Assembly (NCBI GenBank): GCA_964356875.1
Contig: CAYHIX010000002.1
Span: 1 to 42,510, forward strand
Direction of reading: 5' to 3'
DNA: 42,510 nt
DNA from: an uncultured Candidatus Saccharibacteria bacterium
GTDB taxonomy: Bacteria > Patescibacteriota > Minisyncoccia > Phycocordibacterales > UBA9973
Of this stretch, positions 2,688 through 42,510 are shown piece after piece. The number at the start of each line of letters is the position of its first letter. The first letter of the stretch is position 1. Under the pieces are notes generated by a model. It did no database searches. It was not told where the DNA came from and saw nothing but the letters and a program-made list of their open reading frames with translations. The position numbers and the translations under genes were made by a program.

Positions 2688-2723
2688 TATTTATATTAGA
2701 TACATCTCTTTAAATAACAAACT

Positions 2724-2752
2724 AAAAAACTACCATTTACGGGTAGTTTTTT
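2724..2752. terminator. Bidirectional hairpin between convergent genes
   Basis: AAAAAACTACC-loop-GGTAGTTTTTT, with an A-tract and a T-tract flanking the stem. Confidence 0.55.
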
Positions 2753-2798
2753 AGTGAAAATTATTGAATCACTATCCTGTTTTTAATCCACGGAGTGA

Positions 2799-3005: not shown

Positions 3006-3020
3006 ATTATTTATTCATTT

Positions 3021-3036
3021 ATTATAAATTTATAAT
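3021..3036. promoter_or_regulatory. 16-bp perfect palindrome in a divergent promoter region (candidate operator)
   Basis: ATTATAAATTTATAAT equals its own reverse complement. It lies between the divergent genes 2799..3005(-) and 3082..3951(+). It is AT-only, so a chance occurrence is plausible. Confidence 0.2.
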
Positions 3037-3081
3037 CGACCTTTTATTGATATTTATAATAATATAGGTTATGATAGTATC

Positions 3082-11994: not shown

Positions 11995-12006
11995 AATTTA
12001 TTTAAA

Positions 12007-22051: not shown

Positions 22052-22054
22052 CAT

Positions 22055-22810: not shown

Positions 22811-22814
22811 ATAA

Positions 22815-25039: not shown

Positions 25040-28000
25040 ATGAAATTATATATCAAAAAATTTAGCGAAACTTTAGTCGCAAAGATGCTTTTTAGCGTTA
25101 GATTTTTTGTTGTTGTTTTGATAATTATTGCAAATGTTTTTTCCGCACAAACTCTTCACGCAACAGCAGGTATTCCGAAGCTTATAAATTTCCAAGGAAG
25201 ACTCATGGACAACACAGGTGCACTCCTCGGTACTTCTGGTGGGACAGATTACTGTTTTAAATTTTCTATTTATGATGCTACGACTGCCGGCACTAAAATT
25301 TGGCCAACCGCAGCACCGACTCCAGACACTCTTGTGGTAAGGACCGGAGTATTTGATGCGACCATCGGAGTAGCAGACACTCTTGATCTTGCTTTTACAG
25401 ATGATCAAGCTTTTGTGAACGTCGCAGTTTCTGCAAAATCAGGAACTTGTGATGTGGGAGAGACAGGTGAGTCTTACGAAACTCTTACTCCACGTCCGCA
25501 AATTGTTTCTTCTGCTTTCGCGATAAATTCTGGAACAGTTGGAGGATTCACTCCTGCACAATCTGCAACTAACAATCAAATCCCAGTACTTACTTCTGGT
25601 GCTATCGTCCTCGGCCATGCGACCACAGCCGGCCTCGCATCGACTGGATCAAATGCTTTGACCATCGACGCAGGAACTTCTGGGATTTTAAATTTAAATA
25701 ATACTTCGACTGGAAATATTTTACTCGGTGGCGGATCTCTCTCTACTGGTTGTACACTTACAAATACCACAGGAGCGTTTGCATGTACCGCTGGGCTTTC
25801 TGGAGTCGGCGTAAATGCTGGAGCTGGATTACTAGAAGGTCAACTCGGTCTTACAATTACCGGCGCTGCAGTGTCACTAAATGCATCAAGCAACTTTGAC
25901 GTAAACATCGCCACAGGAACTTCAACAGGAGACATCACTCTTGGTGGAGGTACTGCAGGACAACTCATCTCTATCAATTCTGACGACTGGGATATTTCTA
26001 CTGCGGGAGCGATGACGGGGATTTCCGGCATCGCCAACAACGGCGCGTACACACAAAGTGGAAGTAGTGCTAATGCATTTACTGGGGACTCCACCTTTAG
26101 TGGTTTCTTACGAGCAACTGGAGCGATAGCCGAATCTGCTCAATCTATTGATCGTATTGACATTGGAGTTAACTCAGGCACCCCTCGTATGGTATTTGAA
26201 GATAGCGGAAGTACTATTTGGCAGGTTGATAACTTTGCTGGAACGTTTCGTTGGTTTACACCTGGTCAAGAGCGTTTTACTCTTGATAGTAGTGGAAACG
26301 TTGATATTAAAACTGGAGGTTTGCGTTTTGCCGCAACTGAGGTTATTACTTCAGGCCGAGCTGCACAAAATTTAACCGGTGTTAGTTCTTCTGGTACCAT
26401 TGCTTTCTCTGGACTTTCTGCGAACGGACCCGTCTACACTTCTGGCGGTACTGGAACACTTACGACAACGGCTCCAACAAGTGGTGCTATTGGTTACTGG
26501 TCTCGAAGTGGCACTACTTTAGAAACAACCACAGCTAATGACATAGTTTTAATTGATACTACAAATACAACTGGAGCTGATCTTGCAATCACCAACACCG
26601 GCATCTACACAGGGACAGGTATCTTGAACCTTACTGCGAATAGTGCGACGACTGGGACACTGGCAAGCATCACTGGCAACGGCGTAACTACTGGCCAACT
26701 CTTTGCTATTGATGGCGGTAACGCTATGACTACAGGGTCAGTGCTTGGAGTAACAGGGACAACCTATGTTCATGGTGCAGAAACAGGTTCACTTGTTAGC
26801 TTGGCATTTACAGATGCAACTATCGCCGCAGTTACTTCTACAACAAATGGAATTTTGCTCTCTCCAACTATCAACGCTCCATCTGGTGCAGCAACCAGAA
26901 CTATAAACGGGATTTCTATAGCACCAGCTTTTACAGCTTGTACAGCTGGAACTTGTGCAGTCAATGGACTTAATATTGGAAACGTCACAGATGGAACTGG
27001 GTTTACAGGAATTGGTATCAAAGTTGGCACAGGTTGGGATACAGGGATTACGGCTCCTGGCACTGCAGCAAATAGCGAACGATTTGGTTTGGGTGCCACA
27101 GTGCCATCAGGTACCGGAGGTTTAGCATTTGGTTATGGTGCAACTGCTAATGCTTCCGGAGCAACATACCCAATAGCAATCGGATATAACTCTAGTGCCA
27201 CTGGACAGCAAAGTATTGTTGTAGGAGGGGCTTCTACGGCAGTAGGTAATGGAGATATCACAATAGGATCAAATGCAACATCTACGGCAAGTAACACCAT
27301 TGTCATTGGTACAAGTGCAGCCAGTACTTCAAATGAAGAAGTGTTAATAGGGGGTAGTGCGACAGGATATAACGCTGGTAACGGCTATTTAGTAGGTATC
27401 GGTCATAGTGTTGCTGCTACAGGTCAGTACAGTACAGCAGTTGGTTATGACTCCTCCTCTACTCATACAGGAGCGGTGGTACTCGGAGCTAGTACAATTT
27501 CTGGGGGTAACTATTCTATCGCATTAGGTACATCTGCGACAACCACTGCAGCGAATCAATTTGTTGCGGGAAGTAATGGAGCGCAAATCACTGATGTGTA
27601 TTTTAGTGAAGGTGTTACAAATGCAACACCACTAGCGTGGATTTTGAACGGAACTGGTGGATCTGGTACTGATATCGCTGGTGGTGATATTACAATCGCT
27701 GGTGGTAAAGGTACAGGTAACGCAGCTGGCGGTGATATTCTTTTCCAAACTTCTAATGCAGGGGCATCTAGCGCTACACTTCAAAGCTTGTCTACAAAAA
27801 TGATTCTTACAGAATTAGGTAGTGTCGGTATCGGCGATACTTCTCCTGCGGCATTATTTACAGTAGGTTCTGGTGATCTTTTCCAAATTGCATCTAATGG
27901 AAACTTAACTTCTGCAAACGCAGGCACATGGACATTTAGTAACGACACAGACTTCGTCTTAACTGGCGGCACTAACGGACTCTCTATAGACGGTACGACT

Positions 28001-31000
28001 TTCTCTGTAGACGGTTCTAATAATAGAGTGGGTATAGGCACCGCGGCACCAAGCACACCACTACATATATTAGTAGACAATGCTACCAATAACGACGTTA
28101 CTAATTTTATAACACTTACCCATACGACTTCTGGAACACCAGCAAACGGTATCGGTGCGGGAATTTTATTCCAAGCGGAAGATACAAATAGTGAAAATGA
28201 GCTCGCTGCATATATAAACGGAGCTCTTACAGGAGCTTCGCATGGATCTGAAACAGGATCACTTTCATTCTATACAAAGAAGGTTGGGGGATATTCAGCT
28301 ATGATATTTGATAGTGCTGCTAGGTTGGGTATAAACACTTCACCAAGCGGTGGAGCACAATTAGATATACTTAACGATAGTTCTGCAATTAATAATGGGA
28401 TCTTACTTACATCGACTGCTAGCGTAGGTGGTTCTCCTTACTACGGTTTAAATATTGATAGAAGCTCTGGAACTGCATCTACTGCTTATGGTATATATGT
28501 TAACGTCGCAAGTACTAGTACCAACATAGCCGCTCAATTATCAACAACTAATTCTGCTACGAATACTGCGAGCAGTGTTATGAATCTAATCAGCTTAACT
28601 TCTGGTACTGCTGCGAACAACATAGGTGCACAAATGAATTTCTATACAGAGGACGACAGTGGAGCAACCGAACTAGCAGCATCTATCGCAGGTATTTTGA
28701 CTAACGCAACTCATGGTGCGGAAGCTGGGGCATTGGTGTTAAGTACTAGAGCCGGAGAGGTGCTCAGACTTCTAAATAATGGCAATGCAGGGTTTGGTAC
28801 TACTGGCGCAGAAAACGCACTCGACATAAACTCTGCCACAGGAGCAAACTTGCAACTTACATACAATGATAGCAATGGATCTGCTGCGAACAAAGTAAAC
28901 CTTGGTACAACCGCAACAGGTGACTTAACCGTTGTTCCTTCTGGGGGAGATATGGGCCTCACTGGAGTTTTGTCTGTATCTTCCATTCTTCAAGTCGGCT
29001 CTGCAACACCAACGACATATTCAAGACTCGGTACAGCTACTACAAACAGAAGTCTAGATGCAGCGAATGATTTATTAATCTCTGACGATCTGGAAGTAGA
29101 AGATGATGCTTGGATCGAAGGGGATCTAACTGTTACAGGTACTTGTACTGGTTGTGGTGGCTCCACCTTCTCCGGTGAAGTAGACGATGCAACGAATGAT
29201 TCCTTAACTTTCACTTCCGACGATGCTTCAGCACCAGCTGGAACAGTGAACTCTATTTTCCGCGATAACACAGGTGACATGAACATCAACACTGTCACTG
29301 GTAAAACTTTGAATGTACAAATTGCTGGAACTGATGAATACAATTTCTCTGCATCCGCTCTCGCGATGAATTCTAACAATATCACCGGACTCGGCACTGA
29401 TATCACCGCTACTGCTGCACTTACTATTACTTCTACCGGTGCAAGTAACGATATAACCCTAACATCTGCCGACCAAATTATTTTAAACAGTACTGGCACT
29501 ATCGAACTACAAGATGCAACGAATGTAACTGGTAACGCCGATGTATCAGGAACCTTGTTTGCCGGCACAGGCGATGCATTCCAAGTTGCAACTTCTGGTG
29601 CTGTAACCGCAGTAGGCGTGAACTCTGGCGCTGGGCTTTTGCAAGGTGCACTTGGCCTCACTGTCACGGGAGCAGCAGTATCATTAAACGATTCACAGAA
29701 CTTCAATGTCACTATTGCTACAGGAACAAGCACAGGAGACATTACTCTTGGCGGTGGAACAGCTGGTCAATTAATCTCTATTAATTCTGATGACTGGGAT
29801 ATTTCTACAGCAGGTGCAATTACCAATGCAACCTACGAAGGCTTAACTATCACAGCTAATGGAACTAATACTCTAAACATTGCTGCAGGAAAAACTCTCG
29901 TCGTTTCTAACTCTATCACTCTAGCTGGTACAGACTCTACAGTTATGACTTTTCCAACCACTTCAGCGACTATCGCCCGTACTGATGCAGGTCAAACCTT
30001 CACAGGAGTTAATACTTTCACTTCTCCAAGGATCATCACCGATATTTCTGATACCAATGGAAATGAACTCTTTAAGTTTACAGCTACTGGTTCAGCAGTC
30101 AATGAACTTACTTTAGCAAACGCAGCTACTGGAGGCATAATTACTCTCGCTGCTACAGGCGGAGACACAGATGTAGAATTTAGAATTGATTCTAAAGGTG
30201 CAGACGCTCTTCATCTAAATGCTACAGCTACTGGATCCATCTTGTTTGCTGGAGGAAGCGGCTCTTCTGGTTGTACCATTACAACAAGTGGAGCACTAAC
30301 TTGTGATGGCAATATCACTGGTCCAGCTACGGGAAGTATTGGTTACTGGTCACGAAGTGGTACAACCCTAGAAACTACCACAGCAAATGATATCGTATTA
30401 ATAGATACTACAAATACTTCTGGAGCTGATCTAGCTATCACTAACACTGGAGTCTACACAGGAACAGGAGTGTTTAATCTTACTGCGAACAGTGCGACGA
30501 CTGGTGTTGTAGGACAGATCAATGCTAATGGTTTAACAACTGGAACAGCGTTAGACATTTCTTCTTCCGGAACTATTACTACTACCGGAGCACTTCTAAA
30601 CTTAACTGCCAACAGTGCCACTACTTCTACTGGTGTTATTCGAGCTTCTGCAACCGCACTTACAACTGGCTTCATGCAAGCTGCGACTCTTGGCACAGCG
30701 CTAACAACTGGTGGTTACTTAAATCTCACTGGCGCAAGTTATGCTCCGGCAGCTGGTGCTACTGGCAATTTGATTAATATTGCTTTCACAAATGCAGCTA
30801 CTAATGGTACCGGTTCTTCCACAGTAACCGGTATGAGTATTACTCCTACAGTTTCTAACAACGGTGCCGGTATTCAAGAAACTTATGGCATTTATGTACA
30901 AAATACAGCTGGCACTCCATCTACAGGCACCCAAAATACTTACGGTATGAGAATTGGTAATCAAGGCAGAAGTGGTGCTGAAGCTTCTTATGGTTTACTG

Positions 31001-34000
31001 ATAGATAATCAAAGCGGTTCCACCGCTAATACAGGTGCGTTAATTAGTGTTTCCGGGGCTAGTGAAGGTATACATATTGCTGGAACCACTTTGACCAGCG
31101 GCACAGGGTTATCTATTTCTGATACTGTTGTGCAATCTGGTTTATCTAGCTTTACTGGAAACTATATTGATATTAGTATGACCAGAATTAATGCTACTTC
31201 TGGGACAACTACAGACAGTGGAAAATATTTGAATGTTTCTAGAACAGGCAGCGGTGTTACAGGTGGAGCTTTTGCTATAACAGGTAATTTGGTTAATTTG
31301 GCGTCAACGTGTTCAAGTACATGTACAGATTCTGGGAAAATTTTGCAATTAACTCAAAGTTTTGCCACTGCGTCTGGGACAGTGTTGGGGATAGATGGAG
31401 CAGGTACTGGTAATTTGATTTCTGCTGATGCAACAGCTGCTACAGCCAACGGTGTATCTATAGATATTCAATCTTCGTCTTCGTCTCAATATGCTCTTAA
31501 CGTTACAACAAATAATGCTGGAACAAATGCTCTCTGGATTGGTGGTGATGGTAATTTAGGTATTGGTGATATAACCCCAGCGAATAAGCTAACCGTCACT
31601 GGCGCAGCATCGATATCTTCAGTCTTACAAGTTGGTCAGGAAACTGTGGCCGCATATTCTCGTCTTGGTGCTGGCACGACAACTCACACTATGGACGCAG
31701 CAAACGATCTTCTCATTTCCGACGACCTTGAAGTAGATGACGACGCTTGGATTGACGGTGACTTAACAGTCACCGGTACTTGTACTGGCTGTGGCGGCGG
31801 AGCTTTCTCCGGTGAAGTTGATGACACAACTAACGACTCTCTAACATTTACTTCCGACGACGCTTCAGCACCAGCTGGAACAGTGAACTCTATTTTCCGC
31901 GATAACACAGGTGACATGAACATCAACACTGTCACTGGTAAAACTTTGAATGTACAAATTGCTGGAACGGATGAATACAATTTCTCTGCTTCTGCTCTTG
32001 CGATGAATTCAAACAATATCACTGGGCTTGGTACAGCACTTACTGCAACAGCAGGGTTAACAGTAACTGCGACTGCTGCCAACTTGGCTTTAGTCACAGC
32101 AACCAGTGGCAACATCACCTTAGCCCCAGCTTCTACGGGTTCTGTTCAGATTACTTCTGGAGTAACGACAGGTACAGGGACTTCTTCAGGAGTATCAATA
32201 GTTGCTAACTCTCTTACTCAAGGAACTGGGCTGGATATTTCTTCAACTAGCTTGACCACGGGAACATTAGAAAAATTAACTCTTTCTGGGACGAGCGCTA
32301 TAGCTACAGCTGCAAGTAGTGGTTCAGCTTTGACTATTAGTTCTTCGGCGACAGGTTGGACAGGAGCAACTCAAACCCTTGCTGCGGTAACCTCAAGTGG
32401 ATCAAATTCTAACGCTAGTGTGGTGCTCCGTGGTCTAAGTAGTTCGGTCACAAACACAGCGACAACAAGCACAAATGTAGCAGGTTATTTTAATGCAAGT
32501 GGAGCGACTACAAACCTAGGATTAAATGTGGATGCAGGGCAGACTTTACTCGGCGGTACTACGCTGACCTCAGGTACACTTTCAAAGCTTAATATAGTAT
32601 CAACGATGGCTTCAAATGGTTCGACTACTGCCATAGCTGGTATTCATGGAGATTATACATTTAACAATGGAGGTACTGCAGGATATGTCCAAATTGGAAA
32701 TAGATTTGTATTCAATAACGCACCGACGACAAATTCAAATACTATGGTCGGAGAGACTATCAGAGTAGTAGACAATAGCGGTCTCGCAAACCTAGTCCGA
32801 GGTATTGATATTACTGCAAACGCTGGTAGTAATACTGCTGGTACAAACACAGGTATCAGGACGACGGCAGCTACATTTGGTATTCAAGCTATCATATCTA
32901 GTACTGCTGGAGGTGTAGCTATACCAGCTGCTATATATGGTGAAAATACAGGCACAACCAACGGAGACATACTTCGTCTTTACACTGGCTCTATGACTTC
33001 TGCTACATCTATGGCTCAGCTTTATCATGATACCTCTACATTTACAGGTGACGGATTGCTTATGGATATGGCAGTAAGCACTGGTACATTCTCAGGAAAC
33101 TTTATTAATCTCAAAAACGCGAGTGTGCTTAAATTTAAAGTCACCAGTGCTGGCGTAGTTAGTATGGGATTGTCTGCTACTGCATCTACAAATGCAGTTT
33201 GTTCTAGCTTAGCAAATGCTACTGGTCCGACTGCAGGTACTGCGTATGAGATCCGTGATTGTAACGCTGCCCCAGCCGCCGACTACGCCGAGATGTATCC
33301 AGTAGAAAGTGGAGTAGAATTTGGAGACATAGTAGCGACAGGAGATGTGATGATAAATACATATGACACTACAGATGGAAACATAGACTGGACTAAGCTA
33401 AAAGGTCAAATCACCAAACTTGAAAAATCTACAAAAGCTTATCAAGGCAACATCGTCGGTATAGTATCTGATAACTATGGAGACTTTACTTCTGCAGGAC
33501 ACAATATAAAAGATGCAGACAATCCTATGCCGGTAGCATTGAACGGACGTGTGCCTGTAAAAGTAGCTTCAACTTCAGAGCCGATAGTGGCTGGGGATTA
33601 TCTTACTACATCTGCTGATGAACCAGGTAAAGCAACAAAAGCAGTAAAAGCAGGGATAGTCATAGGTAAGGCTATAGCTCCATGGAATCCTGGGCAAGCT
33701 ACTGTCATGGTATATGTCGAGCAAGGTTATTATAACGGAGAGAGTTTGAGTAGCTTTGCTGGTATCACTATCACAGGTACAGCCGAAGACTCCGCTATGA
33801 TACTAGCGAAGTTTTTAGAAGAACAAGACAGCATAGGGTATGATGTGTCAGAAATACTTACAGATCGTCTCGCTGCAGGGCTCGAGATAATCACTCCAAG
33901 ACTTACAGCTTCAGAGATAGATACAGGAGTATTGAGAGTAGGAGAGAGTGCGACTTTCCCAGGGCTTACAATGCTAGCAGGTGAGGAAGATCTACCAGCG

Positions 34001-34540: not shown

Positions 34541-34575
34541 AAAAAATTCTAGTTTATAAACTAGAATTTTTTTTA
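34541..34575. terminator. Bidirectional rho-independent terminator
   Basis: AATTCTAGTTTA/TAAACTAGAATT is a perfect 12-bp inverted repeat flanked by an A-run and a T-run. It lies between the convergent giant gene and 34586..35128(-). Confidence 0.85.
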
Positions 34576-34585
34576 TTTTATATTT

Positions 34586-35128
34586 TTAGATGGTTCGCAT
34601 TTTGGTAATTTTTTTGAAAAGTTTTTTTGGCGGTTCTTCTTTTTGTTCTATTGATCCAGTTTCGTTTTCATTTTTTTTTCTTATTAAATTCGCTAAAGTG
34701 TATGTGACTTGTGGATAACTTTTTTCTTTTTTTGCGGGGGAAATATCTGTGAGGAATTTTTTTACGGGTGGGGTGATGGATTTTTCATCTTTTGGCTTAC
34801 TTAAGCTCATCGCCCAGGCTTTGAAAGTCAGAGCATTTGCTGGAGAGAGTGATTTTAGTATTTCAGTGATAAGATAAACATCTGCCACATCTGTCAAGTA
34901 AAACTTGCCATCAGAAGCCTCTAATTTAAGTTGGTTACATTCTGTAACCAACTGCTTTTGTTTTGTATTTAAACGGTTTTTAAAAACCTTCCAGTAGTTT
35001 CGGGGATTAGAGGTTTTGGTGACAATTCCGACTATATCTACAATAGAAAAACTCCATTTTCCGGCATCTTCATCCCACTTTTTTCTGACTGTGTCAAACT
35101 TTATTTTTTTGATATTTTCTTCGTTCAT
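34586..35128 (-). CDS. Bro-N / DinD-like DNA-binding domain protein (180 aa)
   Basis: KWSFSIVDIVGIVT...NPRNYWKVFKNRL...CNQLKLEASDGKFYLTDVAD...LSPANALTFKAWA resembles the Bro-N/DinD consensus (W.FS..D......YW..LK.RL....LKL.A.DGK...TD....PS.KAE.FK.W). Confidence 0.55.
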   Translation of the reverse strand: MNEENIKKIKFDTVRKKWDEDAGKWSFSIVDIVGIVTKTSNPRNYWKVFKNRLNTKQKQLVTECNQLKLEASDGKFYLTDVADVYLITEILKSLSPANALTFKAWAMSLSKPKDEKSITPPVKKFLTDISPAKKEKSYPQVTYTLANLIRKKNENETGSIEQKEEPPKKLFKKITKMRTI

Positions 35129-35257
35129 TTTCTTTTGTTTATACAGTATATACCAAGAAGAGAGAATTGAGCAATAAAATTTTTAAGAATTTTTCTTAAA
35201 AAACCTCAAAATCTCTATACAAATACAGCTGATAGTAAGGTATAATTATTAACATCG

Positions 35258-36241
35258 ATGAAAAAACTAGAAAATCTTTTTGAAGAATACAAAAAGTTGA
35301 GTTTTCATAAAAAAGTTCTACAGGTTATCTGTATTTTTTTGATCGTTACCAATCTAGTTATTTTTACATTCTATCGTAATGAAGTTGCACGTCATGTGGT
35401 AAGTGACTATGAGGCAAAATACTCATTAATAGATTCTCATAGGCAGTTTCATCAGAGCGAAGACATGATCGTCAATATTCAAGAGCTTCGTGAATACTTA
35501 AAATTATTACCGGAGCAAAATAAAGATTGGGCCGAACTTTCTATATATTTCGAAGTTCTAAATACTGGTGCGAATGTATCAGTAAATCCTGATCTGAAAA
35601 TATGGCCTGCAAGTCTAGCCAAGTTACCAATTGCAATGGTAGCTATGAAAAAAGTTGAAAAAGGCGAATGGTCACTTGATACATTTTTTGAATTAAAAAA
35701 AGAAGATATTGATCAAGACAGCGTACTTGTAGAAGTAGGTAAAAAATACACACTTAAAGAAATAATAAATTCAATGTTGTATCTATCAGATAATTCTAGC
35801 TGGAAGATTCTTTCTAGGAGTTTGTCTGACCAAGAAGTTATGGATATAGGAAACGCTGTCGGATTAGACGAGCTCTTTGTTAAAGACGCAAAAGTAAGTG
35901 CTAAAGAATACGCTAGGCTTTACCGAGCTTTGTATTTGGCAGTTTACTTAAATGAAGAAAATTCACAATTGTTGTTAGATATTCTCACTAAAAATTCTTT
36001 CAAAGATTTTCTAAGGAGTGGACTACCAAAAGATTTTTTGTTTGCACAAAAGTGGGGTACGAATACAATAGTAAATGCTTATTCAGATTCTGGGATTATA
36101 TATATAGAAGAAAGACCATATATATTAGTCGTCATGCTCCAGAGTAAATTAGATGACGTTAAGCTTAGTAGAGAAAAGGCAAATCAGTTAATGAAAGAAA
36201 TTAGTGAAAGATCTTACAACTTTATGTCAAAAAATAATTAA
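35258..36241 (+). CDS. Membrane-anchored serine hydrolase with a class A beta-lactamase / PBP-like fold
   Basis: N-terminal TM (VLQVICIFLIVTNLVIFTF). SxxK appears as PASLAKL, SDN as YLSDNSSW, and a KTG-like box as QKWGTN. Confidence 0.65.
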   Translation: MKKLENLFEEYKKLSFHKKVLQVICIFLIVTNLVIFTFYRNEVARHVVSDYEAKYSLIDSHRQFHQSEDMIVNIQELREYLKLLPEQNKDWAELSIYFEVLNTGANVSVNPDLKIWPASLAKLPIAMVAMKKVEKGEWSLDTFFELKKEDIDQDSVLVEVGKKYTLKEIINSMLYLSDNSSWKILSRSLSDQEVMDIGNAVGLDELFVKDAKVSAKEYARLYRALYLAVYLNEENSQLLLDILTKNSFKDFLRSGLPKDFLFAQKWGTNTIVNAYSDSGIIYIEERPYILVVMLQSKLDDVKLSREKANQLMKEISERSYNFMSKNN

Positions 36242-36247
36242 AACAAT

Positions 36248-39200
36248 ATGAAAGTCTCAGCATTCATGATAGCTAAAATAAAATACTTATTAAGAATCTT
36301 CTCTAAATCTTTAGTAGTTGTTTTTATTTTTTCTTTATTTTTAGCTCAGTTTAATTTAGCACAAGCCATAGATGGAACTGGTATGCTTAACTTTGATGAA
36401 GACGGATTAAACAATGTGTCGCCGCATTATAGGACATGGAGCGGGACTGACTTCGGAGGAGAAAGTAATGCTCAAGACGATGAGTCTGCGAGTGATGATA
36501 CAAACCATACAATAGTAGAAGCTTCACCAACTCGTGATGAATACATAATGGGACGTTTGGAGTTAAATGGTCACGTGGACGTCCAGGTGTTTAGTGGTGG
36601 ATCTTGGATCAATGGAACAAACGCACCAACAAACGGAAACTTCACGACAGGCCTCGGTACTACAAATGACATAGCCAGGGGGTTTGATGTGGCTTATGAA
36701 AACGAAAGTGGCGAAGGGATGGTAGTCTACGAAAGTTCGTCTAGTGGTGATGGATTACTTAAGTATAGAACTTGGGATGGTGATAGTTGGTCTAGTGAAG
36801 ATTCCATTGATTACTCAGCAGTGGATGAAGGTAATGCTGTCGCGGTTTGGGTAGAATGTGAAGCAGATCCTGGTAGTAACTACATAATGTGTGCATGGCG
36901 AGAAGCTACTAACTTAGGTCTGTATGCAGCAGTTTGGGACGGCACTCAATGGCTCAACATAGCACAAATAGCTTCAGAAAATGGCACAGCTGCTAGGCAA
37001 GATTTTGATGTAGCATGGGAAGGTACAAGTGGTGATGGGATGATAGTATTCGGTGATGCCACAGGCGCACCTTTTATAGATGCATGGACATATACAAAAG
37101 GCTCAGGCTGGGCTGATACATCAAGCATGACTGACCCTGGTGCAGCAGTTCAATGGGTACGAATAGCCGGCAGTCCGATTAATGATTATATTGCAGTAAT
37201 GATAGGGGACACTCTTTCTACTACTAGTGCTGACTTGAACGTAGATATGTGGAATGGTTCTAACTGGACAACAGCAAACCAGCCCGGAACTATGGATATC
37301 GATATAAACAACAACGGATATGCCCAAGGCTTTGATGTGGCTTGGGAGCAGGCGACCGGAGATAGGGCTTTGTTTGTATTTCGTGATGGTACAACGAGTG
37401 AAACTTTGATTCGTTATATGGTTTATGATATTTCTGCAAACCAATTTCAAGCCATAGAAGACGGTACGCACTGTGCTTTGACAGAAGGTGCGGCGGGTTA
37501 TGCAGAAACTATTACAAACCTTTCTGCAGTAGAAGATTCCGCTGGTCCTTGTACTGCTACTTTTGCATTAGCGGATTCTTTTTCTGGTATAGATTTAAAT
37601 CCTGATCCTGGATCGAATAAAATTATGGTTTTGGCTGAGGACTTAACTGCAGACTTAGTGCCCGAAGCATTTTTGTGGAATGGTGACGCGAACGGTACAT
37701 GGCTTGCGCAGACAGCCACGATGCAAGGTTTTGAAACTGATCTCTCTACGGGGGCCACTCTGTCGAACTCTTTTCCGACAAAACCATATGACTTTGCTTA
37801 TCGTCAAGCGGGCGTTCACAATGTCTGGACAACGGGAACACAGACTACGAACATGACAGTCGGTGCTACGAATCAATACGTAGGGGGAGCTTTTGTTATC
37901 AACAGAACTACGAGTACAGCGAATGTAACCAGCATAACTATTACCGAACAAGGTACAGTCAATGCACAAACTAATTTAGATAATATAAAACTCTATTATG
38001 ACCTAGATAGTAGTGCTCCTTATAACTGTGCTAGTGAAGATTATGCTGGTGGTGCGACTCAATACGGCTCGACTGATACTGATGGTTTTTCTGCTACGAA
38101 TGGATCTTCTACATTTACTGGATCAGTAGCAGTCACGCCTACCTCAGTAATGTGTGTATACACAGTCTTAGATGTAGGAAGTGGAGCGACGGGTGCTGAG
38201 ACAATTGAAATTCAAATAACAACTCCTAGTACTGACATTGTCGTTTCTGCAGGGTCTATCAGAAATGGATTTGCTCGAGTTATTTCTGGAACTACAACTA
38301 TACAAAATGCTATTACTATATCCGGAACTTGTGATGCGTATGATTTGACTACTGACTGTACTGACGATGGTAGCAATTCTATAAAAGTTGCTGTGAATGG
38401 GACTTTGCAGGGTCAAACTGATTCTGTCGTAGATGGTGCATGGTCTATCGGCTCTATTTCGCAGCCAGTTGCTGGCGATGTAATTACTGTATTTATAGAT
38501 GGTGGAGCGACGGACAGTGAAGAGGCGGTGGCTATAACTAAATATGATGGAAGTGGAGACATAGATCTTGTTCGTTTGTATAAAGAACATGTGACTATTG
38601 GTACAGATACTGGTAGTGCAAACTCCGGACAAAGTTTGACTAGTACCAACTTAGAACAATACGATAACGAAGCGTCGGCTGATGAGGATGTGTTTTATGA
38701 ATCCGACACTGTTGCATTTACTTGTGATGGAGTGGCATCGAGTACCGGGTTTTGTTTGGATAAAAATGCGCAAACTAGTACGGGTCGCTTAACTATTTTA
38801 AGTGGTAATACATTTGCACCAGCGAGTAATATTAATGTACACGACATTGCAATAATCGGTACGTTTACTGGTAATGGCAACACTTATACTGTTAGCGGTT
38901 CTTGGAACGATACAGGAACTTTTACAGAAGGTACTAGTACAGTTACATTTACTTCTACATCGACAGGAGAAACTATTACTACGACAGGGTCAACATTTAG
39001 TACTTTAACTTTTAATGGTGTGGCAGGAGTGTGGACTCTACAAGATAGTGCGACTGTGTCGGGAGTACTAACTATTACTAATGGTGAGTTTAATGCCGGC
39101 TCGGGGACACTCACATTTTCAGGTACTGGTACTCCGCTAGTTGTATCAGGTACGTTCACTGCCTCGACAGGAACAGTGCAGTATACAGCAGCGACGGCGA

Positions 39201-42200
39201 CAGTGACGGTAACCACTTTTAATAATTTAATTTTAGGAGGCACTGGTACATATACTCTCCCTGCGTCAACTTGGAATATTAATGGCGATCTTACTATCAC
39301 CACTGGCGCAACTATCACTAAGGGCGCGGGAACAATTACTTTTAACGGAAGTGCAAATACTAAAACTATCACAGGTAATGCCACGAACAGTGACCTGGGA
39401 ACGATATCGATTGGTAACGGTTCACTTGCAAAGATTATAAATTTGGGATCGTCTATAAAATTAACTGCTGTTACTATCACTGCAGGCGCGACATTTGATA
39501 TTAGTTCTGATACTTTAACTTTGACTAGTACTACAACACCACTTACTACTACGGGAACTTTTACAACTACTGGTAGTACAGTTGTTTATACCGGTAACGG
39601 ACCTACTATAGCAGCTACAAATTATAATAATCTCGAGGTGTCACCAGCCACAAATAGCGGTACAGCTGTGTTCGCTGCCGGTACATTTACTATTGGTGGT
39701 AATCTCACTATTGGTAATGGAACAAACACATTAGTTGCGGTAACTGCTGCTACAAATGCATCGATATTAAATGTCACTGGTAATTTTACTATTAGCAACA
39801 ATACTACCTTTACAGCTAATACTGCGAACGCTTTAAGCATCGGTGGTAATTGGAGTCTCGGTGCCACATCTGCTGTATTTACAGCAAACTCTGGTACGGT
39901 AACATTTACAGCTACTGATACTGGAAACACATTAAGTGGAGGCATGACTGGCAGTAGTGCTTTTTACAATCTTATATTTAATGGTAGTGGTGGAGACTGG
40001 TATTTGAGCAGTGCTCACGACTTGAGCGTCGCGAACTTATTGACTGTTACTGCAGGAACTTTTAAAGGAGTATCTAGTGATGCCTACAATTTATATGCGC
40101 GAAATGGTTTAGTTGGAAATGGAATAGTAGATACTTCTACTTATGGAGGTAGTACTGTCGTAGATGGTAGTTTTGGTGGCGATAGTAACTGGATATTTAG
40201 TACGCTTCAAACTACTACTGCAAATGGTGGTGGGGTAATTACTGCGACTGGTAGTGGCTCTATTACAGTCGCTGGTGTGTTTTCAATGCAAAGCAGTAGT
40301 ACATTTAACGCTGGAAGTAAGACTTATATTTTATCTAGAGCATTTACTTCACCATTTGATCCATCTGGAGGTACATTTAATCCTGATACTTCCACTTTCC
40401 GCTTTACCGGTGCAGGCGATATTACCATCGCGCGTCCTGCGAATGGTTACTATAACTTAGAATCAAAGCCAGCATCTACTAATACGCACATACTTGCAGG
40501 CGGCGGTACATTAACCATCGCGAATGATTTTACTGTGGGTACCGGCTCAAACGCATCTATAGTAGACGCTGAAACAAACGATCCAGTAATTGATATTAAT
40601 AGAGATTTCATCACTAGCGCTTCGGCAACTTTTTCTGCTTCGTCTACGAGCACTATGACAGTTGCGCGTAACTTCACCGATGGTGGTACATTTACCTCAA
40701 ATACTGGTACAGTGCAACTAGATACTACGGCTGCTGCGGTAGTATCAGGCACAGTCACCTTTAATAATTTTACAGTTACTACTGCGACTAAAGACATCAC
40801 TTTTACTGCAGGTGAAACTACTACAATAAATGGATTACTTACTTTAACTGGAGGTAGTGGCGCGGGGAATGAGATAACTTTAAATTCTACAACAGGAAGT
40901 TCTAGCTGGACTATCAACCATCAAGGTACCGAAAACATCACGTATACTACTGTCACGTGGAGTGCTTGTCATGGCTCAAGTACTACTATCACAGCAGATG
41001 GAACGGGGAATACTAACGGCGGCAATAACGGTGTGTGTTGGACTTTGCCTGCTACTGGTATAACTGTCTCTGGTATTTTGTATGACACAGATGGGACTAG
41101 TGCATATGCCACAGTGACAGCTATGAAGCTTTCCATAGAAGGAGCTACAGCAGTAACTACAAATTCTATCGTAACTTCTGGTGTATTTAGTTTTGCTACG
41201 GATACACTTCCATCCGCTGGAGACGACATAACAATATGGCTCAATACTGATGGAGGAATCCAGGGAACTTTAGTATTTAAATATGGTACTTCGTGTACAG
41301 GGCACACAGACTGTACCGGGCTTTCTGTTGTTCGTAATCAAGTTCGTGTGCAAAACTTTCATAGTGGAGCTATTGCAAATACTGATTTGGCAGCTTGTGA
41401 CAATGACTCTGGTGCGGGATGCGCAGATGCTGATATTGGATTTACTGCGAACGCAGGAGTGTTGACCAATACTTGGAGTACTAATACTTTGAATATTTCT
41501 GGCAGTACGAGCTTTACACCAGGAGGGAATATAATAGTGAATAATCTTACTATCAGTGATGGTACTGTTGATATGGCAGGTAACAATTTAAATGTTGGAG
41601 CAGCAGGAGAAGCGAACTCTGGAAATATAAAAGTTGCGAGTGGTGAAGTGCTGAGTCAATCTACTAGTGGTACGACAACTATCTTAGGCTCTGCGAGCGG
41701 GAACAACTGTATTGGTGCTAATGCTGCTTCTTGTGCAGGTACTTCTGGTACGATAACTTTTGGTAATTTAACTATTGGAAATGCAAGTACTACATTTACA
41801 ACTTTATTAGGAAACAACGCGGGTGCTGGAACGGACGTTACAGTTGGAACAGTTTTGACTGTTACCACAAATGCAACCTTGAGCAATGGAATGGCTACGC
41901 TGATTTTATCCGGGGCAGGGACACCTTTCGTGCTTAATGGAACCTTTGCTGGAGGGAATAATGGATATTTTAGGTACACTGGATTTAGTAGTCCGGTTAC
42001 TATTAAAAACGCTTCATACGTAAACTTAGAATTAAAACCGGGAGGAGCACAAACATATATTCTTGAAGGCGGCGGTACTTTTTATGCACTGGCTTTGGTA
42101 GTCGGGGATGGAACTAACGTGGTCACTGTGGATGCCGAAACGAATGATCCTGTATTGTATACAGCGTATGGATTAACTTTGAATGCTAATAGTGTTTGGA

Positions 42201-42510
42201 CCAAATCGAGTAGTGCTACTTGGGGAATCGGTCCAAATTGTGGATCAATGACTATAATAGACTCAAATGCAACCAAGCAAGATCTGGGAATACTTTCAAT
42301 AAATGCGAGCTGTGCCACAATTAACCTAGGATCATCTATAAAGGCTACAAGTATTACTATTCCAACAGGAGATACTTTAGATTTAAATACATATACTCTT
42401 ACCTTGACTGGTAGTGGTACACCGATCACTCGAGTGGGGACATTTACCGCAGATACTGGAACTGTAGAGTACACTTCTGGGTCTGGAGCCACCGCACTTT
42501 CTTCTGCGGC
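36248..42510 (+). CDS. Second giant secreted repeat protein, 5' part only (more than 2087 aa, open to the window end)
   Basis: Not in the ORF track because no stop lies in the window. I translated the frame by hand from ATG 36248 to 42510 and found no stop. Signal peptide is MKVSAFMIAKIKYLLRIFSKSLVVVFIFSLFLAQFNLAQA. It has WxGxxW-type repeats followed by T/G/N-rich beta-helix-like modules. It starts 6 nt after the hydrolase stop. Confidence 0.85.
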   Translation, partial: MKVSAFMIAKIKYLLRIFSKSLVVVFIFSLFLAQFNLAQAIDGTGMLNFDEDGLNNVSPHYRTWSGTDFGGESNAQDDESASDDTNHTIVEASPTRDEYIMGRLELNGHVDVQVFSGGSWINGTNAPTNGNFTTGLGTTNDIARGFDVAYENESGEGMVVYESSSSGDGLLKYRTWDGDSWSSEDSIDYSAVDEGNAVAVWVECEADPGSNYIMCAWREATNLGLYAAVWDGTQWLNIAQIASENGTAARQDFDVAWEGTSGDGMIVFGDATGAPFIDAWTYTKGSGWADTSSMTDPGAAVQWVRIAGSPINDYIAVMIGDTLSTTSADLNVDMWNGSNWTTANQPGTMDIDINNNGYAQGFDVAWEQATGDRALFVFRDGTTSETLIRYMVYDISANQFQAIEDGTHCALTEGAAGYAETITNLSAVEDSAGPCTATFALADSFSGIDLNPDPGSNKIMVLAEDLTADLVPEAFLWNGDANGTWLAQTATMQGFETDLSTGATLSNSFPTKPYDFAYRQAGVHNVWTTGTQTTNMTVGATNQYVGGAFVINRTTSTANVTSITITEQGTVNAQTNLDNIKLYYDLDSSAPYNCASEDYAGGATQYGSTDTDGFSATNGSSTFTGSVAVTPTSVMCVYTVLDVGSGATGAETIEIQITTPSTDIVVSAGSIRNGFARVISGTTTIQNAITISGTCDAYDLTTDCTDDGSNSIKVAVNGTLQGQTDSVVDGAWSIGSISQPVAGDVITVFIDGGATDSEEAVAITKYDGSGDIDLVRLYKEHVTIGTDTGSANSGQSLTSTNLEQYDNEASADEDVFYESDTVAFTCDGVASSTGFCLDKNAQTSTGRLTILSGNTFAPASNINVHDIAIIGTFTGNGNTYTVSGSWNDTGTFTEGTSTVTFTSTSTGETITTTGSTFSTLTFNGVAGVWTLQDSATVSGVLTITNGEFNAGSGTLTFSGTGTPLVVSGTFTASTGTVQYTAATATVTVTTFNNLILGGTGTYTLPASTWNINGDLTITTGATITKGAGTITFNGSANTKTITGNATNSDLGTISIGNGSLAKIINLGSSIKLTAVTITAGATFDISSDTLTLTSTTTPLTTTGTFTTTGSTVVYTGNGPTIAATNYNNLEVSPATNSGTAVFAAGTFTIGGNLTIGNGTNTLVAVTAATNASILNVTGNFTISNNTTFTANTANALSIGGNWSLGATSAVFTANSGTVTFTATDTGNTLSGGMTGSSAFYNLIFNGSGGDWYLSSAHDLSVANLLTVTAGTFKGVSSDAYNLYARNGLVGNGIVDTSTYGGSTVVDGSFGGDSNWIFSTLQTTTANGGGVITATGSGSITVAGVFSMQSSSTFNAGSKTYILSRAFTSPFDPSGGTFNPDTSTFRFTGAGDITIARPANGYYNLESKPASTNTHILAGGGTLTIANDFTVGTGSNASIVDAETNDPVIDINRDFITSASATFSASSTSTMTVARNFTDGGTFTSNTGTVQLDTTAAAVVSGTVTFNNFTVTTATKDITFTAGETTTINGLLTLTGGSGAGNEITLNSTTGSSSWTINHQGTENITYTTVTWSACHGSSTTITADGTGNTNGGNNGVCWTLPATGITVSGILYDTDGTSAYATVTAMKLSIEGATAVTTNSIVTSGVFSFATDTLPSAGDDITIWLNTDGGIQGTLVFKYGTSCTGHTDCTGLSVVRNQVRVQNFHSGAIANTDLAACDNDSGAGCADADIGFTANAGVLTNTWSTNTLNISGSTSFTPGGNIIVNNLTISDGTVDMAGNNLNVGAAGEANSGNIKVASGEVLSQSTSGTTTILGSASGNNCIGANAASCAGTSGTITFGNLTIGNASTTFTTLLGNNAGAGTDVTVGTVLTVTTNATLSNGMATLILSGAGTPFVLNGTFAGGNNGYFRYTGFSSPVTIKNASYVNLELKPGGAQTYILEGGGTFYALALVVGDGTNVVTVDAETNDPVLYTAYGLTLNANSVWTKSSSATWGIGPNCGSMTIIDSNATKQDLGILSINASCATINLGSSIKATSITIPTGDTLDLNTYTLTLTGSGTPITRVGTFTADTGTVEYTSGSGATALSSA

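Follow-up and report, generated by a model that had tools for sequence, protein, structure and literature searches.

Huge exported proteins of the adhesion type have been described in ultrasmall episymbionts. Examples are the giants of Vampirococcus lugosii (in CPR bacteria, giant membrane proteins have been proposed to build a fibrous surface for host contact; PMC8080830) and the glycan-binders of Southlakia epibionticum, a cultured Saccharibacterium that requires these envelope proteins to grow epibiotically (PMC10633639). The giant genes of Omnitrophota, likewise very long, found in ultrasmall, putatively predatory or episymbiotic hosts and associated with cell-envelope interaction, have been implicated in cell-wall degradation, with no mention of a β-lactamase (bioRxiv 10.1101/2023.11.21.568195). 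Here, we describe a surface-protein island in the final 17.5 kb of a Patescibacteria (CPR) groundwater contig, whose two giant proteins, g1 and g2, resemble those of Vampirococcus and Southlakia by description and share their proposed role, host recognition. For neither of these two systems has a linked β-lactamase-fold enzyme, the C-terminal family of g1 or a Bro-N companion been described, and the Omnitrophota giants belong to another phylum, are much larger and carry their enzymatic domains internally, not in a separate partner gene. An analogy for a small wall-active enzyme gene that is encoded and expressed together with a bulky structure crossing the sacculus comes from lytic transglycosylases of the FlgJ, VirB1 and EtgA type, wall-remodeling enzymes encoded with envelope-spanning machines. 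Those enzymes cleave glycan strands (lysozyme/SLT folds) and serve multi-protein machines, whereas the enzyme here has a serine DD-peptidase fold and its cargo would be one giant protein.

The window, i.e., the whole 42,510-nt stretch analyzed, is the complete public contig; g2 is open at its end, which is therefore not recoverable. All other assemblies with an identical hydrolase are shorter than this contig, and JGI metagenomes scanned for exact matches gave none. Assemblies from Hainich H41 groundwater contain genes identical to those of the window, and the cluster of its GAPDH carries the name "Patescibacteria group bacterium". The four genes of the island (g1, a convergent Bro-N-like gene, a serine hydrolase gene and g2) were confirmed from open reading frames and translations, with the coordinates and strands of the original prediction. 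Its statement that the two giant ORFs occupy more than 40% of the window was too high, since they account for 37.1% and only the entire island reaches 41.1%. Housekeeping genes flank the island (DnaE, GAPDH, RpiB, Rpe, a split transketolase, PfkB, HisRS, Def, Fmt, LepB and Pth). The material behind all comparisons is MAGs, and the functional statements made here are drawn from sequence data, fold predictions and the order of genes. With about even confidence, we read the locus as a chromosomal cell-surface island of two conserved units that would combine a wall-remodeling enzyme with glycan-directed adhesins facing host cells.

The first giant, g1 (25040..34540, + strand), is a fiber-type protein of 3166 aa, 57% of which are G, A, S, T or N. 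One single N-terminal hydrophobic segment (aa 10-43) ends in an AxA-type cleavage site (between ..HATA and G), as expected of a secreted protein. Repeats of the SxAxGxxAxA type, a predicted left-handed β-roll resembling the YadA head, occupy aa ~685-835 (27092..27544, +); they matched the collagen-binding head of YadA in a phmmer search (PDB 1p9h, E 1.5e-7) and scored 16.8 bits against Pfam YadA_head, below the cut-off of 25. Such head-type repeats and the logic of a long fibrous adhesin are shared with the trimeric autotransporter adhesins of the YadA family, but membership in that class was rejected because g1 has no C-terminal β-barrel anchor and instead combines an N-terminal signal peptide with a phage-fiber-like C terminus. 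CPR bacteria are not expected to have an outer membrane. A repeat search also found internal duplications in g1 (29016-29315 and 31653-31952, 81%, +; 25779-26016 and 29586-29823; 26468-26655 and 30317-30504). Mismatches between the copies fall mostly at third codon positions and have no adenine bias, which rules out DGR repeats and points to old in-frame duplications; the copies are under purifying selection. Orthologues of g1 lie 5′ of the hydrolase gene at L004, L005, L006, L014, L015, L018, L020-22, L028, L034, L036 and L088, and the g1-like genes of L093 and L098 are 65-72% identical to g1.

The C-terminal module of g1 (aa ~2496-3161; 32525..34522, +) belongs to a family of 3516 representative clusters, in which it is invariably C-terminal and found in long proteins. 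Its conserved core motifs are ADYAEMY, GRVPVKV and GDYLTTS..PGKAMKA (near-invariant residues from alignment A4). Pfam and PDB sequence searches with the module gave no match above threshold (H_lectin was sub-threshold only). The AF2 model of the core (pLDDT >90) gave 44 Foldseek matches in BFVD at E≤1e-3, reaching 1e-9, to phage fiber, pre-neck appendage, Mtd-N and H-lectin proteins; matches to PDB structures were weak (E≥5e-3). The TMt was 0.60 for a pre-neck appendage (phi29 type) and ~0.5 for HPA. Within the module, aa 3020-3089 (34097..34306, +) resemble an H-type lectin domain (21.4-21.6 bits against Pfam H_lectin, below the cut-off of 24; model pLDDT ~90), with Foldseek TMt values of 0.49-0.54 for Helix pomatia/aspersa agglutinin and ~0.2 for discoidin II. 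A Pro/Glu/Thr-rich tail follows (34367-34537, +). Phage fiber tips, pre-neck appendage modules and H-type lectins are trimeric receptor-binding tips, whereas the module of g1 terminates a 3166-aa protein that has a signal peptide and is encoded on a cellular chromosome. We take g1 for a Sec-exported fiber that is, by analogy, probably trimeric.

The second giant, g2 (36248..42510, +), is visible over 2087 aa. Its orthologues at L004, L005, L006 and L014 have 2799-3111 aa and its counterparts in the island neighbors 2890-3210 aa; the C-terminal ~800-1000 aa lie beyond the contig end, as do the genes 3′ of g2. Like g1, it appears to be secreted, with one N-terminal hydrophobic segment (aa 13-42) and an AxA-type cleavage site (between ..LAQA and I). 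A predicted β-propeller of lectin/sialidase-like fold follows (aa 43-520; 36374..37807, +), with repeated blade motifs FDVA[YW]E and WxGxxW and a pLDDT of ~85-95 in the AF2 model. Foldseek matched it in the PDB to GH33 sialidases (E 1e-9) and to the fucose lectins PHL, BP39L, RSL and AFL (TMt 0.5-0.6), fold matches that are generic at such TM-scores, and a scan of the propeller for sialidase motifs found no Asp-box and no FRIP. An HMM of this domain detected it, often as tandem copies, in 16 of the partner proteins. A β-rich module of low model confidence (aa 528-690; 37829..38317, +), defined by iterated HMM search, is common to a few partner proteins (L014, L042, L061, L080 and L090). The remaining T/G/S/N-rich repetitive region (aa ~690-2087; 38318..42510, +) is homologous by BLAST to the equivalent parts of the partners of L004, L005, L006, L015, L016, L018-20, L022 and L028. 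Pfam and PDB sequence searches with it gave no match; it is probably β-helical, judging from relatives with PATR or Beta_helix domains.

The hydrolase gene (TAA at 36239-36241) and the g2 ATG (36248) are separated by 6 nt (AACAAT) and are in the same frame, in agreement with the original prediction. Its proposal that the two genes form a unit is decisively borne out by synteny in relatives. Of 65 GTDB loci with ≥3 kb of sequence 3′ of the hydrolase gene, 57 have a partner ORF of ≥750 aa on the same strand that starts between 47 nt before and 101 nt after the hydrolase stop, most commonly with a 23- or 17-nt overlap; at 2 more, the partner is one small ORF further downstream (59/65). Partner proteins have a median length of 1365 aa, and ORFs of such length make up 7.7% of the background. 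All seven homologues inspected individually have a large secreted protein directly 3′, and at L093 and L094, where the hydrolases are only 27-30% identical, giants of 3094-3210 aa still come next. The order g1-hydrolase-g2 is kept in at least 13 loci, the closest relatives included. Because the pair recurs in ~90% of related genomes, we take it as a conserved module of the cell surface that did not arise by chance; hydrolase and g2 would be co-transcribed as a tightly coupled two-gene operon. Most partner proteins elsewhere share a previously undescribed N-terminal leader, NIVD..Y..NVID, which is absent from g2, so that its role may not apply here. By their N-terminal architecture, the partners form at least five classes, mostly without detectable mutual homology; conservation extends to the presence of a "large secreted protein", not to any specific adhesin.

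The pair is spread over many Patescibacteria lineages, as expected of a core envelope function, and the hydrolase could on this account be an ordinary low-molecular-weight PBP and the giant a structural protein of the wall or S-layer type. The strictly conserved catalytic motifs of the hydrolase and the setting among housekeeping genes, with PfkB adjoining the island both in the window and at L093, agree with such a housekeeping cluster. We nevertheless consider it unlikely, since the island is mosaic and its two units (g1 plus the Bro-N-like gene; hydrolase plus g2) reassort between genomes: at L093, the first unit is 65-67% identical to that of the window, while the hydrolase is only 27% identical and g2 is unrelated. 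In addition, the passenger domains of the partners are highly variable and modular, g1 ranges from 1587 to >4300 aa among relatives, and additional Beta-lactamase2 paralogues lie near the locus in at least one genome (L009). Variability of this sort typifies interaction or host-range proteins, not core structural components.

The hydrolase itself (35258..36241, +; 327 aa) is a PBP-A-like serine enzyme of the class A β-lactamase fold (Pfam Beta-lactamase2, PF13354; E 7e-36, 124 bits). Its motifs are S119-L-A-K122, S177-D-N179 and K265-W-G267, the third being KWG instead of KTG. In an alignment of 21 homologues (A1), SxxK, SDN and KxG are invariant, the KTG counterpart reads K-[W/Y/F/I/Q]-G, and an N-terminal TM segment is present in all 21. 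The window protein has one N-terminal hydrophobic segment (aa 16-41) with no AxA-type cleavage site and only ~50 residues between this anchor and the catalytic domain. The predicted "membrane-anchored SxxK/SDN serine hydrolase" is thereby upheld, and the uncleaved anchor and short spacer would keep the enzyme tethered at the membrane of its producer. The DD-peptidase family PBP-A (e.g., Thermosynechococcus Tll2115, PDB 2j9o/2j7v) shares the fold family, the SxxK, SDN and KxG motifs and an omega-loop unlike that of true class A β-lactamases; the hydrolase differs from it in the N-terminal membrane anchor, K-W-G in place of K-T/S-G, and a near-obligatory operon with a secreted giant. The literature searched contained no description of a giant-protein operon partnership for PBP-A or any β-lactamase.

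The original prediction had also allowed for cell-wall attack. On this reading, the hydrolase would be delivered to the peptidoglycan of host or prey, or act on it, and the two giants would be targeting fibers. Bacterial predators attack prey walls with DD-endopeptidases and those of the CPR have secreted peptidoglycan hydrolases (PMC8080830), the lectin-like and phage-fiber-like domains of the giants suit binding to foreign cell surfaces, and the hydrolase is operon-coupled to a giant fiber. However, an enzyme held by an uncleaved anchor (conserved in 21/21 homologues) on a ~50-residue spacer would have to be released to reach beyond its own wall, and it carries no fused domain for cell-wall binding or toxin delivery. 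Moreover, PBP-A-type enzymes of the class A fold (Tll2115) are carboxypeptidases that act on the producer's own wall. The shortened omega-loop and the uncleaved anchor therefore fit action on the own wall or an own partner protein, not on prey, and we regard attack as somewhat less probable still than a housekeeping role. Given KWG and the altered omega-loop, the partner protein or some other substrate could be the target instead of the wall.

That the gene is a genuine β-lactamase, a resistance gene lying beside surface-protein genes by chance, is very improbable. In Pfam, NCBIfam and the PDB, it is indeed most similar to class A β-lactamases (BlaZ, E 1e-8, compared with 5e-7 for the PBP-A Tll2115), and CPR genes of this kind have been catalogued as a resistome, with 1606 class-A-like genes reported and some β-lactam hydrolysis by two that were tested (PMC9145738). 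The NCBIfam class A model has, however, a cut-off of 200 bits and gives only 80, KTG is replaced, the protein is membrane-anchored, and the HMMER alignment is gapped across the omega-loop, the segment with Glu166 and Asn170 in class A enzymes. The ~90% operonic coupling to a secreted giant would also have no rationale for a resistance enzyme.

Between g1 and the Bro-N-like gene lies a terminator-like hairpin (34537..34576), common to both convergent genes and unique in the window. The proposed strong bidirectional terminator is matched by a perfect 18-bp palindrome with a 4-nt loop and A8/T8 flanks that folds on the two strands with dG -16.4/-16.9 kcal/mol (z -8.1/-9.3). A consensus terminator scan of the window did not report it because it is AT-rich, with 2 G-C pairs per arm. 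The adjacent gene (34586..35128, - strand) encodes 180 aa with an N-terminal DNA-binding-type domain, a conserved SYPQV motif and a Lys-rich C-terminal end (subfamily alignment A5). It matches phrog_15286 (E 1.5e-26) but not Pfam Bro-N, even at E≤10. Its Bro-N homology is transitive only, through P0171, which is 53% identical over aa 1-106 of both proteins (E 4e-36) and matches PF02498 with aa 14-109 (1.2e-10). Of the predicted "Bro-N/DinD-like" label, the first half thus holds in this transitive sense and the second is unsupported, with no NCBIfam match. The divergent intergenic region toward the hydrolase gene (35129..35257) contains TATAAT at 35241-35246, 11 nt 5′ of the hydrolase ATG, a putative promoter that a consensus promoter scan of the window did not report.

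The Bro-N-like gene had been described as phage-associated and isolated by the terminator. It is no stray phage remnant, since its subfamily is a recurrent neighbor of g1-type giant genes in many genomes; it is absent in L014, the closest g2 relative. The gene probably encodes a local regulator or was domesticated from a mobile element. Derivation of this gene and the tail-fiber-like g1 from an integrated phage or mobile element, with no cellular role for either, is equally improbable as a chance β-lactamase: the phage association of Bro-N and phrog_15286, the fiber resemblance of g1 and the ORF6N/GIY-YIG genes and IS200/605 transposase at the L006 island are outweighed by the lack of capsid, portal, terminase, integrase and tail-tube genes in the window, by a g1 that far exceeds phage fibers in size, bears a signal peptide and keeps its duplicates under purifying selection, by the position beside PfkB in a relative as well (L093), and by the 3516 clusters of its C-terminal family in long cellular-type proteins.

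The reading we prefer, own-wall remodeling coupled to adhesins, would involve (i) g1 as a Sec-exported fiber with a YadA-like head, a phage-tail-fiber-like distal module and an H-type-lectin-like end, together with the convergent Bro-N-like gene, and (ii) a type-II membrane-anchored serine enzyme together with Sec-exported g2, its lectin-like propeller and a long β-helix-like passenger. On the outer face of the producer's own membrane, the enzyme would react with stem peptides of the D-Ala-D-Ala type to give an acyl-enzyme; it would be a DD-carboxy- or endopeptidase rather than a true β-lactamase. Local remodeling of the own peptidoglycan would then let the co-expressed protein of >200 kDa cross the wall or stay in it. 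Trimerization and lectin activity of the giants are suggested solely by analogy. The original interpretation is thus supported in part, for the unit and the surface role; of its "attachment or cell-wall-attack module", attack is the weaker option. The YadA-head-like repeats, the phage-fiber-like module with its H-lectin-like fold and the lectin/sialidase-like propeller make a role at the surface or in attachment plausible, and g1 and g2 may serve this bacterium as glycan-directed adhesins toward host cells.

The four genes of the island are arranged as originally predicted, on the strands predicted, according to an ORF map and translations: the first giant gene, g1 (25040-34540, + strand; 3166 aa), a Bro-N-like gene (34586-35128, - strand; 180 aa), a hydrolase gene (35258-36241, + strand; 327 aa) and the second giant gene, g2 (36248 to the contig end, + strand), of which 2087 codons are visible before it runs off the end. 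The two giants had been said to occupy more than 40% of the window; that share holds for the whole island (41%), while the giants themselves make up 37%. Exactly one N-terminal hydrophobic segment is present in each of g1, g2 and the hydrolase. In the two giants it is accompanied by an AxA-type signal-peptidase site (between HATA and G in g1, between LAQA and I in g2), which bears out the signal peptides assigned to both, and the N-terminus of the hydrolase has no such site. The GC content of the giants is elevated (0.43-0.46 vs 0.33-0.40), which fits their composition, rich in Gly, Ala and Thr. The strong bidirectional terminator proposed beside the Bro-N-like gene was recovered as a perfect 18-bp palindrome with A8/T8 flanks (34537-34576) between the convergent g1 and Bro-N-like genes (dG about -16.4 to -16.9 kcal/mol; z = -8 to -9 against shuffles).

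Only 6 nt separate the hydrolase stop codon (TAA, 36239-36241) from the g2 ATG, a spacing that had led to the proposal of an operon. To place this pair in a wider context, we scanned one genome per GTDB species for the hydrolase and obtained 80 loci, all 80 from Patescibacteria-type MAGs (Paceibacterota, Kerfeld-, Doudna-, Falkow-, Gracili-, Peri-, Dojka-, Microgenomat- and other lineages). Partners, defined as ORFs of at least 750 aa, were counted in loci whose sequence continues for 3 kb or more past the hydrolase, 65 in all. A partner started between -47 and +101 nt from the hydrolase stop in 57 of these 65 loci; of background ORFs, 7.7% reach this length. Thus, the operon hypothesis survives the test of synteny in relatives, with strong numerical support. 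The median partner length is 1365 aa, and in two apparent exceptions (L031 and L077) the partner lies one small ORF beyond the hydrolase. The commonest spacing is an overlap of 23 or 17 nt; such stop/start overlap is frequent in relatives, unlike in the window. In the window the hydrolase and g2 share a reading frame with only TAA-AAC-AAT between them (36239-36250), so that stop-codon readthrough would yield a fusion, but a frame match is expected in 1 of 3 cases and this one is probably a coincidence.

The closest relatives preserve more of the island. Four hydrolase homologues of about 50% identity (P0002, P0007, P0008 and P0027) are preceded by a giant of at least 3400-4350 aa and followed by a giant of 2799-3111 aa, and BLAST identifies g1 and g2 as orthologous to the respective giants of three related loci (L004, L005 and L006). 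In L004 and L005, genes for small secreted proteins come after the second giant. In at least 13 loci of the subclade nearest the window, a g1-type gene lies directly upstream of the hydrolase. For three homologues of about 40% identity, the next gene downstream encodes a secreted protein (851, 1385 and 1551 aa), and even Beta-lactamase2 genes of 27-30% identity (L093 and L094) precede giants of 3094-3210 aa. L005 also carries, between its g1-like gene and its hydrolase, a 783-aa M11/M12-type zinc metallopeptidase with NPCBM_assoc and Big_7 domains (L005:2680-5031).

Residues 95-293 of the hydrolase match positions 1-213 of the 214 in Pfam Beta-lactamase2 (PF13354) with 124 bits (cut-off 22). 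Its motifs S119-L-A-K122 and S177-D-N179 correspond to Ser70-x-x-Lys73 and Ser130-Asp-Asn132 of Ambler class A enzymes. The third motif differs: class A has Lys234-Thr/Ser235-Gly236, whereas the hydrolase has K265-W-G267. An alignment of 21 homologues (36-52% identity) shows no variation in S119xxK122, S177-D-N179 or the K and G of K265-x-G267; between these last two stands W, Y, F, I or Q and never T or S, and the N-terminal transmembrane segment is kept in all 21. The HMMER alignment has a gap of about 8 residues at the segment that holds the omega-loop R164-E166-N170 of BlaZ; a conserved acidic residue in the motif G-[LM]-[DE]-x-[LF]-F could, judging from the alignment, stand in for Glu166 of that loop. 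The NCBIfam model bla_class_A gives 80.1 bits, below its curated cut-off of 200. Among proteins of solved structure, the hydrolase is closest to S. aureus BlaZ (1e-8) and to Tll2115 (2j9o), a cyanobacterial DD-peptidase of the PBP-A type, which is similar in sequence to hydrolase residues 93-320 (E 5e-7). Enzymes of this type are marked by DD-carboxypeptidase activity and by deacylating beta-lactams slowly. From these sequence features we infer that the hydrolase would be an active, acyl-enzyme-forming serine enzyme, tethered on the outer face of its own membrane, and that it is probably closer in character to a penicillin-binding protein (PBP) than to a lactamase. In one related locus, the same neighbourhood encodes a second Beta-lactamase2 protein, of 580 aa and fused to PG_binding_4 (L009:17680-19422), so at least some genomes have paralogues of the hydrolase family; a TrbL-like (type IV secretion) protein is encoded near the hydrolase there (L009:6083-9409).

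The partners are far more diverse than the enzyme that precedes them. Single-linkage BLAST united 72 of them, but the idea of one homologous family was rejected when the first 600 aa were clustered: they fall into several classes (19 DUF7483-type, 14 propeller-type including g2, and others) that are mostly unrelated to each other by hhalign, and single linkage had joined unrelated architectures through shared modules. What most partners have in common is a leader of about 80 aa, consisting of a transmembrane helix, [F/L]P, the double motif N[IV][IV]D-x2-[YW]-x7-9-N[IV][IV]D at about residues 38-65 and an Ala-rich junction. Of 75 partners, 41 have this leader by regular expression; a search of all loci, covering 929 open segments no shorter than 200 aa, places it exclusively in genes after the hydrolase (for example, L007:10998-11250, L011:8146-8400 and the corresponding genes of L048, L024 and L079, each just after the hydrolase). 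It has no model in Pfam or NCBIfam. The passengers behind it are mutually unrelated. The general rule is thus a conserved enzyme and, behind it, a giant passenger that bears the leader but is otherwise highly variable. In the window this arrangement is derived: g2 and its nearest clade lack the leader and have an ordinary short Sec-type signal peptide instead.

A word-indexed search for homologues of the g2 N-terminus was swamped by low-complexity words and gave only 23 matches. The AlphaFold2 (AF2) model of residues 41-690, built on a 24-sequence alignment (mean pLDDT 72.6; about 85-95 for the first 440 residues), shows a beta-propeller. Among its Foldseek matches are GH33 sialidases (2ber, E 1e-9), GH43/GH32 enzymes and, with TMt 0.5-0.6, the fucose-binding propeller lectins PHL, BP39L, RSL and AFL. 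GH33 sialidases are six-bladed propellers with Asp-boxes (SxDxGxTW) and a FRIP motif, and g2 resembles them in fold alone; a regular-expression search of g2 residues 1-560 found neither motif, and a sialidase identity was rejected for this reason. Since the blades carry FDVA[YW]E and WxGxxW in place of these motifs, glycan binding without catalysis is the more economical reading of the modeled propeller. Propellers of this type occur in only 16 partners, often in tandem, and the module at g2 residues 528-690 in only 6. The rest of the visible protein (residues ~690-2087) is rich in T, G, S and N and is homologous to passengers of relatives; sequence searches of Pfam and PDB gave no match for it. 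Because some relatives of g2 have PATR or Beta_helix domains, this region is likely a beta-helical stalk. A sortase-motif-like LPATG at residues 1600-1604 (41045-41059), in the middle of g2, is followed by no hydrophobic segment in the visible part and is probably there by chance.

Against Pfam, NCBIfam and PHROGs, both giants gave sub-threshold matches only (H_lectin, YadA_head and a compositional match to PARP). In g1, residues ~685-835 resemble the collagen-binding head of YadA (PDB 1p9h, E 1.5e-7; Pfam YadA_head 16.8 bits, cut-off 25). Trimeric autotransporter adhesins end in the YadA membrane-anchor beta-barrel, whereas g1 ends in a phage-fibre-like module and a Pro-rich tail; a Pfam search of g1 found no anchor barrel, and an autotransporter identity was therefore rejected. 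The C-terminal ~700 aa define a family of great size, with 3516 representative clusters matched at E<=1e-3 and 572 at <=1e-30; here the match is invariably at the C-terminus of long proteins of up to 4834 aa and the motifs ADYAEMY, GRVPVKV and GDYLTTS..PGKAMKA are near-invariant. A PDB sequence search with the profile of this region (A3) found nothing. Its AF2 model has a mean pLDDT of 67.7 and values above 90 in the core and the lectin-like domain. Weak PDB matches of the model are to phage decoration and head-fibre proteins, H-type lectins, tailspike C-termini and pyocin fibres. BFVD gave 44 matches at E<=1e-3, including a phage pre-neck appendage (TMt 0.60) and tail-fibre, Mtd-N, collagen-repeat and H-lectin proteins. 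The lectin-like region (pLDDT ~90) matches HPA/HAA with TMt 0.49-0.54 and E 1e-2, and Pfam H_lectin (PF09458) scores 21.4-21.6 bits there against a cut-off of 24. We infer that g1 may be a trimeric fibre, N-terminally proximal, with a glycan-binding tip. Three pairs of internal repeats, 71-81% identical in DNA and differing mostly at third codon positions, indicate that internal duplication enlarged g1. The Mtd-N-like matches had suggested a target of a diversity-generating retroelement (DGR), an idea rejected because the repeats lack adenine bias and the window ORFs contain no reverse transcriptase domain.

The Bro-N label of the 180-aa protein stands by transitive homology only. The protein itself has no match to the Pfam Bro-N model (PF02498) even at E<=10, and none in NCBIfam. 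Its residues 1-106 are 53% identical to residues 1-106 of its homologue P0171 (E 4e-36), of which residues 14-109 match PF02498 at 1.2e-10; dozens of homologues are annotated BRO or Bro-N, and PHROGs assigns the protein to phrog_15286, a family without a function there. Many relatives of the domain (P0143-P0157 and others) are fused to an HSP20/alpha-crystallin domain (PF00011), an architecture that to our knowledge has not been described.

There were two indications that this gene is a lineage-specific insertion. It is absent from L004, from the P0027 contig and from L014, which has the closest relative of g2, and the same g1-hydrolase gap in L006 holds minus-strand ORF6N and GIY-YIG genes instead (L006:8756-9847). 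A direct comparison of the window protein with the L006 ORF6N protein found no similarity. A recent random insertion was nevertheless dropped as an explanation, because the subfamily adjoins g1-type giants in L093, L094, L096, L098, L021 and JGI loci. All four sampled close homologues (60-69% identity; L093, L094, L096 and L098) lie in such islands, and convergence with a g1-type giant is seen in four of five contexts, the window counted, the remaining one having the gene between the hydrolase and g2. In the JGI scan, g1-type giants adjoin 6 of 9 full-length members of the subfamily and 2 of 26 relatives that have the Bro-N domain alone in common. The island junctions do appear to draw small mobile or DNA-binding genes, and L006 has an IS200/IS605 Y1 transposase gene after its g2 (L006:20475-20993). 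The Bro-N-like protein itself may have a regulatory or a domesticated mobile-element role.

L093 shares 65-67% identity with the window in its g1 and Bro-N genes but only 27% in its hydrolase, and its giant partner is unrelated. L014 shows the converse. These opposite patterns indicate that the island is a mosaic of two reassorting units, g1 with the Bro-N-like gene and the hydrolase with g2, a pattern suggestive of a host-interaction locus that varies. In the window as in L093 (GCA_031425235.1), the g1-type gene has a PfkB kinase gene beside it (23932-24924 and 11926-12543, respectively). The island occupies a conserved chromosomal position at which the hydrolase/g2 unit has been exchanged. 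A prophage was rejected on account of the housekeeping flanks and the lack of phage structural genes, none of which was found in the window.

The remainder of the window is ordinary chromosome, with genes for DnaE, GAPDH, RpiB, Rpe, a split transketolase, PfkB, HisRS, Def, Fmt, signal peptidase I, Pth, MsrA and NDH-2. A protein named 'Patescibacteria group bacterium' shares a cluster with the GAPDH. The transketolase (21170-23813) is encoded by an N-terminal gene (21170-22051) and a C-terminal gene (22815-23813), between which lies a 251-aa ORF (22055-22810) without a Pfam match. At the contig start there are a group I intron (Rfam RF00028, 82 bits, E 1e-19; 479-754, +), a 121-aa ORF with a weak HNH-endonuclease match that overlaps it from upstream (190-555, +) and, on the opposite strand, a partial tRNA match at the contig edge (1-55, -). 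A 289-aa protein (3082-3951, +) combines HTH_17 DNA-binding and B12-binding domains in a CarH/MerR-like architecture, which is unexpected in a metabolically minimal Patescibacteria genome. A 187-aa protein (6327-6890, +) has a C-terminal PG_binding_1 peptidoglycan-binding domain; it is wall-associated and is not linked to the island. The window is the complete 42510-nt NCBI contig. An identical hydrolase occurs on short contigs of Hainich H41 0.1-um groundwater assemblies, and the other assemblies that contain it are shorter than the window; JGI metagenomes, scanned for exact matches that could extend the contig, gave none.

The island had been proposed to serve in cell-cell attachment or cell-wall attack. 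Attachment is plausible, and attack is weakened by the tethering of the hydrolase to its own membrane. In published work, Vampirococcus, a predator that belongs to the CPR, was proposed to build a fibrous host-contact surface from giant membrane proteins (PMC8080830), and a cultured Saccharibacterium requires glycan-binding proteins of its envelope (PMC10633639). Giant genes of Omnitrophota were tied to cell-wall degradation, with no mention of beta-lactamase-fold partners (bioRxiv 10.1101/2023.11.21.568195). Among CPR 'class A beta-lactamases', 1606 were counted and two assayed as resistance-type enzymes (PMC9145738). Surveys of CPR-enriched families do not mention the hydrolase-giant pair, and a non-exhaustive literature search found no description of the operonic coupling or the leader motif. 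Taken singly, the PBP-fold hydrolase, the fibrous adhesins and the Bro-N protein are of familiar types; what is probably new, as variation on them, is that their coupling is conserved, that the island is a mosaic and that the partners have a leader.

A broader reading, which we think unlikely, is that the 'class A beta-lactamase-like' genes of Patescibacteria, so far listed as a resistome, encode dedicated partner enzymes of giant surface proteins. The membrane-anchored PBP-fold transpeptidase or peptidase may recognise its own co-encoded giant as a substrate, in most lineages through what would be the juxtamembrane NIVD..Y..NVID leader and its Ala-rich junction. The enzyme would then process the giant or install it, covalently or non-covalently, in peptidoglycan. 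Such a scheme would amount to surface display of a sortase-like or two-partner-like type, with a penicillin-binding fold as its basis. In the window, a derived version, an ordinary signal peptide would have replaced the leader, and a second giant, the phage-fibre-like g1, would have been recruited with its Bro-N companion.

Patescibacteria make up a huge, mostly uncultured share of bacterial diversity and live in attachment to other cells; their surface assembly and host recognition are poorly understood. About nine in ten of their abundant 'beta-lactamase-like' genes open a predicted operon whose second gene encodes a very large secreted protein. Enzyme and giant partner form a concrete, testable pair, with a leader motif that is diagnostic in most lineages. 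This linkage shifts the default reading of the more than 1000 reported CPR 'class A beta-lactamases' from antibiotic resistance to envelope and adhesin biogenesis.
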